From Prochlorococcus sp. AG-402-L23 (GTDB lineage: Bacteria > Cyanobacteriota > Cyanobacteriia > PCC-6307 > Cyanobiaceae), in contig QCIO01000006.1 in the NCBI GenBank assembly GCA_003216635.1, positions 17,767 through 81,766 of the forward strand: 64,000 bases of DNA, read 5' to 3'. Position numbers and translations under genes: made by a program. Positions within the stretch are counted from its first letter, which is position 1. Each line of letters opens with the position of its first letter. This document shows positions 8,961 through 12,828 of this stretch, piece after piece. Below the pieces are notes generated by a model. That model searched no databases, was not told the origin of the DNA, and worked only from the letters and a program-made list of their open reading frames with translations.

Positions 8961-10469
8961 TCAATTATTAAAATATTTATTAATAATTTTCAATACATTG
9001 ATATAACAAGGATTTTTTTTAGAAATTTGATTACTAAATTTAATTTTTTTAAAGTCGTTTTCCTCTTTGTCAATAACCAATTTCTTGTAAAAGTTTTCAA
9101 TATCATTAAAAAGATAATCTCCTTTTAATTTTTCATTTAGTTCGAAAGATAATTCAGATTTAACAGATTCTTGGCAAAAATTGGTGATTTCTTCTGAACT
9201 AATTAAAACCTTATAAATTTCTTTTTTTTCTTCTGAATTAGCATTAAAGCATAAATAAATCAGATTAATCATTGAACAATTATTATTTTTAATTTTGAAT
9301 TCTTTATAAATCTCTGGCCAAAACTTTAAAGATTTTAGACCTTCTAAACCTCCTTGATTGAGAGAGCATTTATTACACCAATTTACAAATTCTGAGATAT
9401 CTTTTGGACATCTTTTGAGTTGCAAAAGCATATCCGATAAAACTTGTCCTGCTTGAAAATTACGTGTTGGTTTTCCTTCCGTTGGTAGAGTCATACTCCC
9501 TAAAACATCAGCCTTAACAGCATTTAATTGAGAAAAAGTATAATCTCCTTTTTCACAAAATTTATCATTAATTATTTCCTTTGCACTAATAATTTCTTCA
9601 CCATAACCAAGTTCTTTTAATGAAAGATATTCATTCTCTAATTTATTTTTTTTTCTAACTTGTAATGATAATGATGCAGCCTGATCTAAACATTGAGTTA
9701 ATAAAATCGTATTAATGGTAGGTAGCATTCCGGGCTTATCGGAATGAAAGTTATTTACAAAACCTGCAAATATGGATGAGATATTTTTTATTGATTTTAT
9801 ATATTGACATTCAATATTATGAACTCCAGGAGAAACTTGAATTTTCGGTGATAATTGATTCAAAATGCGAGCTCCTATTAAAGCAGTTAGGGCATCAGGA
9901 TGGCAGAAATTTGCAGTAAAACTATCATTAGGATTTCGTAAAGCGCCGTGACGATGAAATCCTGTAAAAAAAGCTAAATTTGGATATTTATTACAAAGAA
10001 TAAAAGGGGTTTTATTTATATTATCAATGCAAAAAGAACCGACGAGACAGCCAAGAACAACATTTTCTCTTTTTAAAGTTTTTCTGAGTTTTAAAGCATA
10101 TTTAATATCATCTTGTATGTGATTACTGTTTGAAGCAAGAATAACTATCTCACATTCCAAGAGAAGATCTTTTAGATCAAAAGACTTTCTTTCTCCCTCT
10201 GAAGAATAATGTCCCATTCTCTTAATCTTTTCAATAATCTCATCATCCATATAAGAAAGAACATCATTTGAGAAAGCACCTAACAAATCTCTATCTTCCC
10301 TAGGAGCCAAGAGAATATTGTTTGATTTTCCATGCATAGCACAGTTGTATGCTAATGATGCAGGATATAAACCAACACTGTAGAATCCAACTTTGCTGTT
10401 CTCTATATCTTCAATCAATGAATAAAAATATTTTTCATCATTTATGTTTTCTATGAAATTATTCTTCAT
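8961..10469 (-). CDS. Divergent NAD(P)H-dependent glycerol-3-phosphate dehydrogenase-like protein (GpsA fold)
   Basis: Manual alignment to the E. coli GpsA motif series in correct order: VGLYPASLA, CEIVILASNSNHI, LAFFTGF, QYIKSIKNISSIFAG, ADVLGS...TRNFQAG, LEGL (see findings). Confidence 0.65.
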   Translation of the reverse strand: MKNNFIENINDEKYFYSLIEDIENSKVGFYSVGLYPASLAYNCAMHGKSNNILLAPREDRDLLGAFSNDVLSYMDDEIIEKIKRMGHYSSEGERKSFDLKDLLLECEIVILASNSNHIQDDIKYALKLRKTLKRENVVLGCLVGSFCIDNINKTPFILCNKYPNLAFFTGFHRHGALRNPNDSFTANFCHPDALTALIGARILNQLSPKIQVSPGVHNIECQYIKSIKNISSIFAGFVNNFHSDKPGMLPTINTILLTQCLDQAASLSLQVRKKNKLENEYLSLKELGYGEEIISAKEIINDKFCEKGDYTFSQLNAVKADVLGSMTLPTEGKPTRNFQAGQVLSDMLLQLKRCPKDISEFVNWCNKCSLNQGGLEGLKSLKFWPEIYKEFKIKNNNCSMINLIYLCFNANSEEKKEIYKVLISSEEITNFCQESVKSELSFELNEKLKGDYLFNDIENFYKKLVIDKEENDFKKIKFSNQISKKNPCYINVLKIINKYFNN

Positions 10470-10559
10470 TTTTGGAAATTCTTGATAATTTTTTTAATTT
10501 CTTACCCATACCAACATTTATTTACTTTAAAGCAATTTTTGACCATAGCAAATTATTTA

Positions 10560-10589
10560 TTGAAAATATTGAATTTTTTAATTTATAAT
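10560..10589 (+). promoter_or_regulatory. Putative sigma70 promoter for stpA
   Basis: TTGAAA (10560-10565), 18-nt spacer, TATAAT (10584-10589), 45 nt upstream of the ATG. The AT-rich context lowers specificity. Confidence 0.45.
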
Positions 10590-10634
10590 TTCTATGCAAA
10601 TGGAAATTAAATTAAAAGAAAAATAATTATAAAT

Positions 10635-11855
10635 ATGGATTATATGGCAAGTAATTTAAAGGTACAAAAACAATTAATTTCTTCTAAAAATATATTATTT
10701 ATTCAAGATATTGACGGAGTTTGTATCCCTTTAGTTAAAGATCCAATGACAAGAGAATTAGAATCAAAATATATCTATGCAGTAAAAGAATTTGCCGAGG
10801 AATTCTTTGTATTAACTTGCGGGGAACATGAAGGTCCAAGAGGGGTTAACAGAATAATTGAGAGGAGTTTAAGGAGCACTACTGAGCCTAAAAGCAAAGA
10901 ATTATATTTAAGAGGTTTAGCTGCTTGTGGAGTAGAGTATCAAGACAACAATGGTGAAATAAGTTTTGAAGGAGTCTCAGAAAAAGAATTAAATTTTTTA
11001 TCTAAAGTACCTAGTTTAATAAGACCAAAATTTAATTTGATAGTTAAGAATATTTTTCCTGAACTTAGCCAAGAAGATATCAATTTTCACGCGGTAAAAT
11101 CAATATGCGAAACACGCTTTTCGCCAACGATTAATTTCAATAGTCTATTTGATTTAGTTCACAAAGATTCTGATAAAAGAAAGCTTATTCAAATTAGTTT
11201 TGAAAAAATGATGAATGAAATCATCTTAAAAGCTGAATCAGAAGGGCTAAAAAACTCATTTTTTCTTCATATTTCTCCAAATTTAGGGAATAAAAATGAT
11301 AGAGAAATAATTAAACTTTCTTCCAAAGATGATATTGGATCAACAGACATACAAATACTTATTAGAGGGGCAGTTAAAGATTCTGGAGTCTTATTTCTTT
11401 TAAATAAATTTATTAAGATTAAAACTGGCAAAGCTCCTTTTGGAAATAATTTTAATTTTAAAAATTCCCCAAAATCTGTCAGAGAAAAAATTGATTTATG
11501 CAAACGATCTATCCACATAGATGATATGCCTTTAATAGTGGGAGTTGGGGATACAGTAACATCTAAAAAAATTAATGATGAGAAAAGTTATTTAAGAGGT
11601 GGAAGTGATAGGTCTTTTCTAGAATTTATACAAATATTAGGTAATGAATTTAGTATCAATAATAAAATAATATTTGTAGACAGTAGTTCTGGAGAAGTTG
11701 AAAGACCTTCTACAAAAAAAACTGGTTTGATAGGGATCAGTGATTTTTATGACAACTTAAAGTTTGATATGGTTTTTAAAAATGGTCCCAAAGAATATAT
11801 AAGTTGGTTCATTGAACTTGCTAATAAGAGATCTAACTTTAAAAAAAATAGTTGA
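10635..11855 (+). CDS. stpA: Glucosylglycerol-3-phosphate phosphatase StpA/GgpP (HAD family)
   Basis: HAD motif I IQDIDGVCIPLVKDP, LTCGEHEG.RGVNRI, GLAACGVEYQ, ISPNLG, GVGDTVTS and GGSDRSFL. Confidence 0.88.
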   Translation: MDYMASNLKVQKQLISSKNILFIQDIDGVCIPLVKDPMTRELESKYIYAVKEFAEEFFVLTCGEHEGPRGVNRIIERSLRSTTEPKSKELYLRGLAACGVEYQDNNGEISFEGVSEKELNFLSKVPSLIRPKFNLIVKNIFPELSQEDINFHAVKSICETRFSPTINFNSLFDLVHKDSDKRKLIQISFEKMMNEIILKAESEGLKNSFFLHISPNLGNKNDREIIKLSSKDDIGSTDIQILIRGAVKDSGVLFLLNKFIKIKTGKAPFGNNFNFKNSPKSVREKIDLCKRSIHIDDMPLIVGVGDTVTSKKINDEKSYLRGGSDRSFLEFIQILGNEFSINNKIIFVDSSSGEVERPSTKKTGLIGISDFYDNLKFDMVFKNGPKEYISWFIELANKRSNFKKNS

Positions 11856-11895
11856 CTTTTTAATTTTCGAATGACAATTTATAAATAATATATTT

Positions 11896-12828
11896 ATGAA
11901 AGAAAAATTCCCCTCAATCTATAAAGAACCTATAGAAACATTGCAAATTAATATAGGTTATAAATGCAACCAGGCTTGCAAGCATTGTCATGTCAATTCA
12001 AGTCCCCTAAGAACTGAAAAGATGTCAAATGAAGTAGTATCTCTTATTCCAAAAATAATTGAAAAATACAAAATTAAGACTTTAGATATTACAGGTGGCG
12101 CGCCAGAACTTCACCCAGAGTTTAAAAACCTAATAACCAGTTTGAGCACAAAACAAGTTAATATTATTGACAGGTGCAATTTGACAATTTTCTTTGAAGA
12201 AGGTTATAAAGATCTTCCTCAATTTCTTGCAAAGAATAAAGTGATAGTTTCGGCTTCGCTACCATGTTACGAAAAAAATAATGTTGAGTTTCAAAGGGGT
12301 CTAGGGGTTTTTGAAAAAAGTATTAATGCTATAAAAATACTCAATGATTTAGGCTACGGGAGGAGAGAGAATGGATTGCAATTAAATCTTGTTTACAATC
12401 CTGTAAGCCCAATTCTTCCTCCTTCTCAGAAAATATTGGAACAAGACTATAAAAAAATATTATACGAAAAATATAATATTGTTTTTAATAATTTATACAC
12501 AATAACTAATATGCCAATAAATAGATATGAAGAATCTCTAAGAAGAGAAGGGAAACTTAATACTTATTACAAATTACTAAAAGAAAATTTTAATGAAAAT
12601 AATTTAGAAAACCTTATGTGCAAAAAAACTATTAGTGTAAATTGGCTTGGAGAAATTTATGATTGTGACTTTAACCAACAGATAAATTTCCGAGAGAATA
12701 AAGGACCAAAGACACTTTTTGATCTATTGGATGAATCATTTACTTTTGACTACAAGGTAGCGGTAAAAGAACATTGCTTTGCTTGCACTGCAGGAGCAGG
12801 ATCAAGTTGTGGAGGGACTTTAAGTTAA
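11896..12828 (+). CDS. arsS: ArsS-type radical SAM protein with Cys-rich C-terminal domain (DUF3641-like)
   Basis: LQINIGYKCNQACKHCHV (CxxxCxxC), LDITGGAPELHP, SLPCY, LVYNP, YDCDFNQ and HCFACTAGAGSSCGG. Confidence 0.8.
   Translation: MKEKFPSIYKEPIETLQINIGYKCNQACKHCHVNSSPLRTEKMSNEVVSLIPKIIEKYKIKTLDITGGAPELHPEFKNLITSLSTKQVNIIDRCNLTIFFEEGYKDLPQFLAKNKVIVSASLPCYEKNNVEFQRGLGVFEKSINAIKILNDLGYGRRENGLQLNLVYNPVSPILPPSQKILEQDYKKILYEKYNIVFNNLYTITNMPINRYEESLRREGKLNTYYKLLKENFNENNLENLMCKKTISVNWLGEIYDCDFNQQINFRENKGPKTLFDLLDESFTFDYKVAVKEHCFACTAGAGSSCGGTLS

Follow-up and report, generated by a model that had tools for sequence, protein, structure and literature searches.

The glucosylglycerol (GG) gene clusters of cyanobacteria comprise ggpS, ggpP (also called stpA), ggtABCD, glpD, glpK and gpsA (PMC6753628). 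Marine Synechococcus are all reported to possess ggpS and ggpP and to accumulate GG; the key genes of GG synthesis, including ggpS, are absent from most Prochlorococcus (PMC6753628). In Prochlorococcus MIT 9303, ggpP is present, ggpS is absent and no GG is made, and it has been proposed that ggpP serves as the sucrose-phosphate phosphatase in Prochlorococcus, where spp is absent and the phosphatase part is missing from most spsA genes (PMC11505929). The retention of StpA without GgpS is thus an already known puzzle. A second described system of interest is the ArsM/ArsS arsenosugar pathway, in which ArsS adenosylates dimethylarsenite (PMC13598754); arsenic-methylation genes are ubiquitous in Prochlorococcus populations (PMC6426599). 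Here we analyzed a 64-kb stretch of DNA from Prochlorococcus sp. AG-402-L23 (contig QCIO01000006.1, ~31% G+C, hereafter the window), whose nearest relatives are high-light clade II (HLII) Prochlorococcus. In this window, an stpA gene lies between a divergent gene labelled GpsA-like and a downstream arsS gene. An initial annotation of the sequence took the three genes to be a possible module for a glycerol glycoside, most specifically for a route to arsenosugar-glycerol.

The arrangement of the three genes and the lengths of the two spacers were confirmed by the exact coordinates of the open reading frames (ORFs), which are as follows (GPDH, glycerol-3-phosphate dehydrogenase):

8961..10469, minus strand: GpsA-like gene, 502 aa, with a GPDH fold in the predicted structure and without a Pfam or NCBIfam model
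10470..10634, 165 bp: divergent spacer between the GpsA-like gene and stpA, the presumed site of both promoters
10635..11855, plus strand: stpA (ggpP), glucosylglycerol-3-phosphate phosphatase family, 406 aa (TIGR02399, PF09506)
11856..11895, 40 bp: spacer between stpA and arsS
11896..12828, plus strand: arsS, radical-SAM protein of dimethylarsenite adenosylation, 310 aa (TIGR04167)

The reading that we favor, with a probability of roughly 0.6, is that the GpsA-like gene and stpA represent the remaining core of a GG locus, and that arsS stands beside them by inherited gene order, not as part of one three-gene pathway. The GpsA-like/stpA pair is the constant element of these loci, and it is found together with GG genes in the clusters of the 5.2 type described below. 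The adjacency of arsS is a feature of one clade, inherited together with an APH-family kinase gene and fur, and it tolerates insertions.

The GG clusters of the estuarine 5.2 type (loci L083, L094, L095 and L100) are found in Synechococcus sp. NB0720_010 and three metagenome lineages. Their gene order is hsp90-ggpS-ggtBCDA-gpsA-like<>stpA-treS-like-glpD-glpK-mscS, without arsS. The carriers belong to the Vulcanococcus group, which we take to be subcluster 5.2. Their ggpS is authentic (TIGR02398, 736 bits against a cut-off of 569), and the spacer between the GpsA-like gene and stpA is 54 bp. The idea of a glycerol-glycoside module therefore survives for the GpsA-like/stpA pair, which sits inside a complete GG cluster with ggpS, but not for its tie to arsS. 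In a second cluster type, represented by Synechococcus CS-1329 and one metagenome contig, the order is ggpS-GH13-glpD-glpK-GH13-stpA, with neither the GpsA-like gene nor arsS. An stpA from Oceanospirillaceae stands alone. Altogether, arsS is not found beside stpA in L083, L089, L093, L094 and the proteobacterial locus L088, and its absence from both types of GG cluster and from a proteobacterial stpA locus speaks against a three-gene route to arsenosugar-glycerol. In the 5.2-type clusters, the GH13 gene right after stpA (L083 11269-13017; L094 11236-13005) scores 597 bits with the trehalose synthase model TIGR02456, under the cut-off of 678, and its product may act on GG rather than on maltose or trehalose.

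Compared with the published GG clusters (PMC6753628), the window has a full-scoring GgpP in its StpA and has retained mscS, which is 51% identical to the mscS gene closing the L083 cluster; the pair itself lies between ggpS-ggtBCDA and glpD-glpK in the 5.2 type. The slot between stpA and mscS, which holds treS-like-glpD-glpK in the 5.2-type cluster, is filled by arsS and fur in the window. The differences are that the 64 kb contain no ggpS, ggt, glpD, glpK or treS-like gene, and that the dehydrogenase-like partner of stpA is neither a canonical GpsA nor GlpD. No ggpS was found in the flanks of the 80 HLII loci either, and neither ggpS nor canonical GpsA was found in any locus of the arsS type (2.77 Mb searched).

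Marine Synechococcus, represented by MIT S9504 and numerous metagenome contigs (42-67% G+C), show the order APH-(sbcC)-gpsA-like ... stpA-arsS ... fur. Among the metagenome loci with enough flanking sequence, stpA is divergent from the GpsA-like gene within 10 kb in 40 of 44. Spacers in marine Synechococcus range from 33 bp to ~9.7 kb, the latter in lineage L128/L132, where stpA is furthest from its partner. arsS follows stpA in 29 of the 31 loci with enough flank, and both exceptions are GG clusters. The stpA-arsS gap measures between 29 bp and 2.6 kb, and in 13 of these 29 loci it is longer than 700 bp. It often contains genes, such as one for a 253-aa secreted protein that part of the lineages have. 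In a side observation, both gaps (GpsA-like/stpA and stpA/arsS) were found to be insertion hot spots in the loci L095-L174, with inserts coding for GST (46 loci), PQ-loop, ThiF/rhodanese and the 253-aa secreted proteins. fur follows arsS in all Prochlorococcus loci, and in all marine Synechococcus loci long enough to show it. Marine Synechococcus with an arsS-adjacent stpA are reported to make GG (PMC6753628), so their StpA has its ordinary substrate, and the adjacency does not point to a different one.

The order APH-gpsA-like<>stpA-arsS-fur is common to the sampled Prochlorococcus and marine Synechococcus, except that APH is missing here in the high-light genomes. When synteny was followed beyond close relatives, the stpA-arsS linkage was seen only in marine Synechococcus and Prochlorococcus; we found neither its recurrence in unrelated taxa nor joint gain or loss of the three genes. 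In low-light-type Prochlorococcus, and likewise in the majority of marine Synechococcus loci, the GpsA-like gene is flanked by the APH-family kinase gene (for example, L081 11546-12673, L084 7071-8225 and L085 1533-2681), in some cases with sbcCD separating the two. This neighbor was considered as a kinase of the 5-methylthioribose type, but the candidate was rejected, as the protein matches no NCBIfam model, including that of methylthioribose kinase.

Within HLII, arsS directly follows stpA in 80 of 80 species genomes bearing stpA, and the GpsA-like gene is present in 79. This genome set comes from a profile search of genome contigs with the StpA alignment, which returned only HLII Prochlorococcus (90-95% identity) and matched StpA near its full length (at least residues 3-404) in all 80; taxa beyond HLII were reached via representative clusters, cluster look-ups and look-ups of the encoding contigs. 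An identical order of nine genes, from metY to the dehydrogenase, is found in 68 of the 80 genomes. Since the whole nine-gene neighborhood is kept in HLII, the conserved adjacency does not single out these three. The same order is present in a MIT 9515-type genome and in two deeper low-GC lineages, whose StpA is 47-52% identical to that of the window. The GpsA-like/stpA pair occurs in every sampled Prochlorococcus lineage, with spacers of ~110-210 bp, and the stpA-arsS gap is ~30-50 bp. The adjacency looks tight in Prochlorococcus because the genome is compact, and tight spacing in a compacted genome is no proof of a common pathway.

The identities of StpA and ArsS given in the initial annotation hold, as both proteins score above the curated equivalog cut-offs. 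StpA reaches 619 bits with TIGR02399 (cut-off 365.5) over residues 13-400 of 406, and matches PF09506 with an E-value of 1e-146 over profile positions 1-388 of 388. Its motifs QDIDGVC, GVGDTVTS, RGGSDR and VDSSxGE align with those of full-length enzymes from Synechococcus/Vulcanococcus, Salinicola and Oceanospirillaceae. The family is small, with 172 clusters among 1.84 billion representatives. ArsS scores 442 bits with TIGR04167 (cut-off 300) and contains the Radical_SAM (PF04055) and DUF3641 (PF12345) domains; its translation shows the CX3CX2C motif as CNQACKHC and a Cys-rich C-terminal tail (...HCFACTAGAGSSCGG). It is 47-50% identical to PGAP-annotated ArsS proteins on proteobacterial plasmids.

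The term GpsA-like is right as a statement about the predicted fold of the 502-aa protein; membership in the GpsA family is not shown. At the level of sequence, Pfam, NCBIfam and PDB gave no match even at E 10 (with the single sequence and, for PDB, also with a 31-sequence profile). There is no significant sequence or profile match to PF01210 or PF07479, and an hhalign comparison with E. coli GpsA was not significant (E 0.23). At the level of structure, an AlphaFold2 model built with 31 homologues (pLDDT 84.8, pTM 0.84) is predicted to adopt the two-domain GPDH fold. In a Foldseek search of PDB, the top 15 matches were all NAD-dependent glycerol-3-phosphate dehydrogenases (E 1e-8 to 8e-7, target-normalised TM 0.59-0.70), and the next family, ketopantoate reductase, was four orders of magnitude weaker. 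In low-scoring segment alignments with E. coli GpsA, K228-N229 aligns with the KN motif and R336-N337 with the phosphate-binding SRN motif, and both are invariant. The protein thus resembles GpsA/GPD1 (PDB 1n1e, 1txg, 3k96 and 6e90) in its predicted two-domain fold and, within these low-scoring alignments, in its KN and RN motifs, but differs from them in several respects: the identity is 10-14%, the active-site Asp and Thr are not aligned, there are ~150 extra C-terminal residues, and the dinucleotide motif GxGxxG is replaced by S31-V-G33-L-Y-P36 (SxGxxP), in which only the middle Gly is kept. SxGxxP is invariant across the Prochlorococcus and Synechococcus members, and therefore is a trait of the family and not a sign of decay in Prochlorococcus.

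The family of this protein is restricted to picocyanobacteria and has no Pfam or NCBIfam model. A protein search listed 635 homologues, which all named sources label 'hypothetical', and 284 relatives were found among 241 million metagenome records. Long invariant blocks run throughout the alignment, and the identity between HLII and Synechococcus members (47-52%) is higher than that of StpA (40-43%). Within HLII, the dN/dS values of the GpsA-like gene (0.15), stpA (0.18) and arsS (0.08) are similar to those of neighbors such as fur (0.05) and the isochorismatase-family gene (0.22); all three genes are under purifying selection.

These data are consistent with the following scenario. The GpsA-like gene and stpA would be an old divergent pair of the picocyanobacterial GG locus. 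In GG-making Synechococcus, the GPDH-fold protein probably supplies or handles sn-glycerol-3-phosphate for GgpS, a role suggested by its fold, by the Lys-Asn and Arg-Asn motifs and by its position between ggpS/ggt and glpD/glpK. GgpS would then join glycerol-3-phosphate to ADP-glucose, and StpA would remove the phosphate. In most Prochlorococcus, ggpS was probably lost and the pair was retained under purifying selection; being kept under selection without ggpS, the pair would therefore have a GgpS-independent job there. The best current guess is that StpA dephosphorylates another sugar phosphate, as in the published speculation on sucrose-6-phosphate. arsS is presumably an ordinary ArsS, whose product most likely adenosylates dimethylarsenite supplied by an ArsM from another site of the genome. 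The gene would have come to follow stpA in an ancestor that marine Synechococcus and Prochlorococcus have in common, and would have kept this position by descent. Genome compaction in Prochlorococcus may then have narrowed the stpA-arsS gap, so that stpA transcripts probably read into arsS.

Prochlorococcus is the most abundant phototroph of the ocean and sheds unused genes. A phosphatase kept in such a genome without a known supplier of its substrate therefore indicates a true gap in our knowledge of how Prochlorococcus handles sugars, osmolytes or arsenic. The constant companion of StpA is an unannotated GPDH-fold protein, not arsS, and in estuarine Synechococcus this protein lies in the middle of a GG cluster. 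This provides a first functional handle for it, and makes it a cheap and direct target for enzymology. What is new here is modest: a GPDH-fold family without annotation and the stable pairing of its gene with stpA.

Several points weigh against the view that the pair is a GG remnant with arsS as an inherited neighbor. First, stpA followed by arsS in the same orientation is found in 29 of 29 marine-type metagenome loci and in all Prochlorococcus, and the survival of this order through many insertions could reflect selection, not inertia. Second, RNA contigs bridge stpA and arsS, and co-expression is possible. Third, the catalytic status of the GpsA-like protein appears uncertain given its SxGxxP sequence, and in the low-scoring alignments the active-site Asp and Thr positions of GPDH fall on Ser and Pro. 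Fourth, StpA has no demonstrated substrate in Prochlorococcus. Fifth, if Prochlorococcus lacks the TIGR04282 and TIGR04283 glycosyltransferases, the late steps of arsenosugar synthesis would need other enzymes. Finally, evolution may have run in either direction, the GG cluster being ancestral or assembled later.

Contigs of four marine metatranscriptomes cover all three genes, and the stpA-arsS junction is bridged in each of them (11827-11948, 11799-11925, 11827-11951 and 11806-11918). The RNA support for this sequence consists of these contigs only, which are strandless and may include carried-over DNA. A scan found no terminator-like hairpin between stpA and arsS. Because the contigs bridge the junction and no terminator separates the genes, read-through from stpA into arsS is plausible. 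The scan found 23 promoter-like sites, compared with 25.9 expected from shuffled sequence. The separate arsS promoter suggested earlier (TTGACT-N17-CAATTT) fits the consensus at 7 of 12 positions, below the scan threshold, and was not recovered. The best promoter-like match of the region, TTGAAA-18-TATAAT (10560-10589, plus strand), fits 11 of 12 positions and lies in the divergent spacer. Contigs of two metatranscriptome runs begin at 10504 and 10508, and a contig that includes the 5' end of the GpsA-like gene extends to 10561. The divergent transcripts of the GpsA-like gene and stpA may therefore overlap at their 5' ends, hinting at shared regulation.

These observations bear on another explanation, in which stpA and arsS form a stress operon, co-transcribed and co-regulated, for example under phosphate scarcity with raised arsenate uptake, and share no metabolite. 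The bridged junction in four independent metatranscriptomes, the lack of a terminator and of a convincing internal promoter, and the same orientation of the two genes in all loci are what one would expect from such an operon. However, the strandless contigs may reflect contaminating DNA, and in Synechococcus up to 2.6 kb and intervening genes separate stpA from arsS. We therefore consider the operon unlikely.

A further alternative concerns the pair alone. In Prochlorococcus lacking ggpS, the two proteins could constitute a two-step glycerol route, from dihydroxyacetone phosphate to glycerol-3-phosphate and on to free glycerol, as in Dunaliella, with arsS an unrelated neighbor. The second-ranking structural match of the GpsA-like protein is indeed the Dunaliella salina phosphatase-GPDH fusion (PDB 6iuy, E 3e-8), in which the coupling to a phosphatase is achieved by fusion and not, as here, by a divergent gene pair. 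In agreement with this route, the divergent pair is kept tight in all Prochlorococcus (~110-210 bp), and the constraint on its two genes is similar (dN/dS 0.15 and 0.18). On the other hand, StpA is not of the phosphoserine-phosphatase type, the two functions reside in separate genes, and we found no evidence for glycerol-3-phosphate hydrolysis by StpA or for the production of free glycerol by Prochlorococcus or by the pair. The GpsA-like protein has an unusual NAD(P)-binding motif, and the pair sits with ggpS in Synechococcus, which already explains a need for glycerol-3-phosphate. The route is very doubtful in our view.

Comparison with arsS loci of other bacteria may provide some clues regarding the arsenosugar proposal. 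Plasmids of Acinetobacter, Burkholderia, Cupriavidus, Thiodictyon and others carry ArsS homologues with 47-59% identity; two proteobacterial plasmids with full annotation, those of Acinetobacter and Thiodictyon, were examined. On the Acinetobacter plasmid (L091 5965-12263), arsS is followed by genes for a TVP38/FAD oxidoreductase fusion, a DUF547 protein, two 'arsenosugar biosynthesis glycosyltransferases' (TIGR04283 and TIGR04282), a methyltransferase and a phosphate transporter. On the Thiodictyon plasmid (L175 5305-8605), it lies between a GT2/sterol-desaturase pair and a gene for a TIGR04282 protein. On a Burkholderia thailandensis plasmid, arsS is accompanied by a further radical-SAM gene and DUF547, and the TIGR04282/TIGR04283 glycosyltransferases are absent. 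Neither StpA nor the GpsA-like gene lies near arsS in any of these three contexts, and a tblastn search of plasmids with the GpsA-like protein gave no match. The plasmid arsS genes with TIGR04282/TIGR04283 represent a mobile arsenosugar gene set; the name of the Acinetobacter plasmid, pJNE5-X3_NDM-1, refers to the NDM-1 carbapenemase.

The locus in the window resembles the ArsM/ArsS pathway in that its ArsS passes the equivalog cut-off and shows both the radical-SAM and the Cys-rich motifs. It differs in the company of arsS, which here consists of stpA and a Fur-family gene: homologues of TIGR04282/TIGR04283, of the methyltransferase and of DUF547 were found neither in the window nor in the related loci (2.77 Mb searched), and arsS was not accompanied by arsM, TIGR04282 or TIGR04283 in any of them. 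A Pfam sweep of the whole window likewise revealed no arsM-like gene, as the initial annotation had stated. Its accompanying statement that no glycosyltransferase is present needs amending, as a glycogen synthase (39022-40473, minus strand; Glyco_transf_5 and Glycos_transf_1) is the sole one in the window; it is irrelevant to the arsenosugar hypothesis.

According to the arsenosugar proposal, glycerol-3-phosphate would come from the GpsA-like protein and the adenosyl-arsenical from ArsS, another transferase would link the arsenoribose to glycerol-3-phosphate, and StpA would remove the phosphate to yield a glycerol arsenosugar. The APH kinase of low-light Prochlorococcus and marine Synechococcus could contribute a step of ribose-1-phosphate activation. 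The proposal draws on the universal stpA-then-arsS order in marine picocyanobacteria, on the 40-bp spacer bridged by RNA contigs and without a terminator, on the purifying selection on all three genes, on the presence of StpA without GgpS in most Prochlorococcus (PMC6753628, PMC11505929) and on the commonness of arsenic-methylation genes there (PMC6426599). However, the block contains neither arsM nor a ribosyl or glycosyl transferase, inserted genes are frequent between stpA and arsS, and the 5.2-type GG cluster has the other two genes but no arsS. The same arrangement occurs in Synechococcus, whose StpA serves GG synthesis (PMC6753628). On the plasmids examined, arsS is found with dedicated glycosyltransferase families (two plasmids) and never with StpA; moreover, the StpA family is tiny, and ArsS is present in distant phyla without a nearby StpA. 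The APH protein matches no 5-methylthioribose-kinase model. GG-phosphate is a 2-O-alpha-glucopyranoside, and an arsenosugar is a 1-O-beta-ribofuranoside. From general chemistry, a large change in the specificity of StpA would be needed to pass from the glucopyranoside to the ribofuranoside. The arsenosugar-glycerol module is thus weakened, not disproved, and it is not supported; we regard it as highly improbable. The most elaborate version, in which the APH kinase, the GPDH-fold protein, StpA and ArsS form a late arsenosugar pathway that activates the arsenoribose from the ArsS product, joins it to glycerol-3-phosphate and leaves the dephosphorylation to StpA, would, if true, explain why streamlined Prochlorococcus retain StpA and its partner without GgpS, but it is the least probable of the readings considered.

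The remaining neighbors can be described briefly. Two lie downstream of arsS:

12835..13290, minus strand: Fur-family regulator (PF01475, E 1e-34), convergent with arsS and six bases away
14047..15084, plus strand: mscS-type mechanosensitive channel with Pfam MS_channel domains

fur is part of the same inherited gene block as arsS, which does not imply a functional link. It is followed by an isochorismatase-family gene, the mscS channel and a short-chain dehydrogenase. The ORFs of the latter two are convergent, and their 3' ends overlap by 30 bp (15055-15084). On the other side, the GpsA-like gene is adjoined by an ORF of 233 aa (8209-8910, minus strand) with no Pfam or NCBIfam match. This ORF is a conserved neighbor, being present in 77 of the 80 HLII loci, in those of high-light clade I (HLI) and of the low-light type, and in 36 metagenome loci of marine Synechococcus. 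Two more ORFs of the window, 19843-21231 (minus strand, 462 aa) and 49429-49851 (plus strand, 140 aa), are also without a Pfam match, and an Rfam scan of the window gave zero matches. Finally, the window encodes a GLTT-repeat/DUF3721 protein (25284-25706, plus strand), whose homologue lies between arsS and fur in the marine Synechococcus loci L085 and L086. In the window, this gene is located 12 kb from the arsS-fur site occupied by its Synechococcus homologue.

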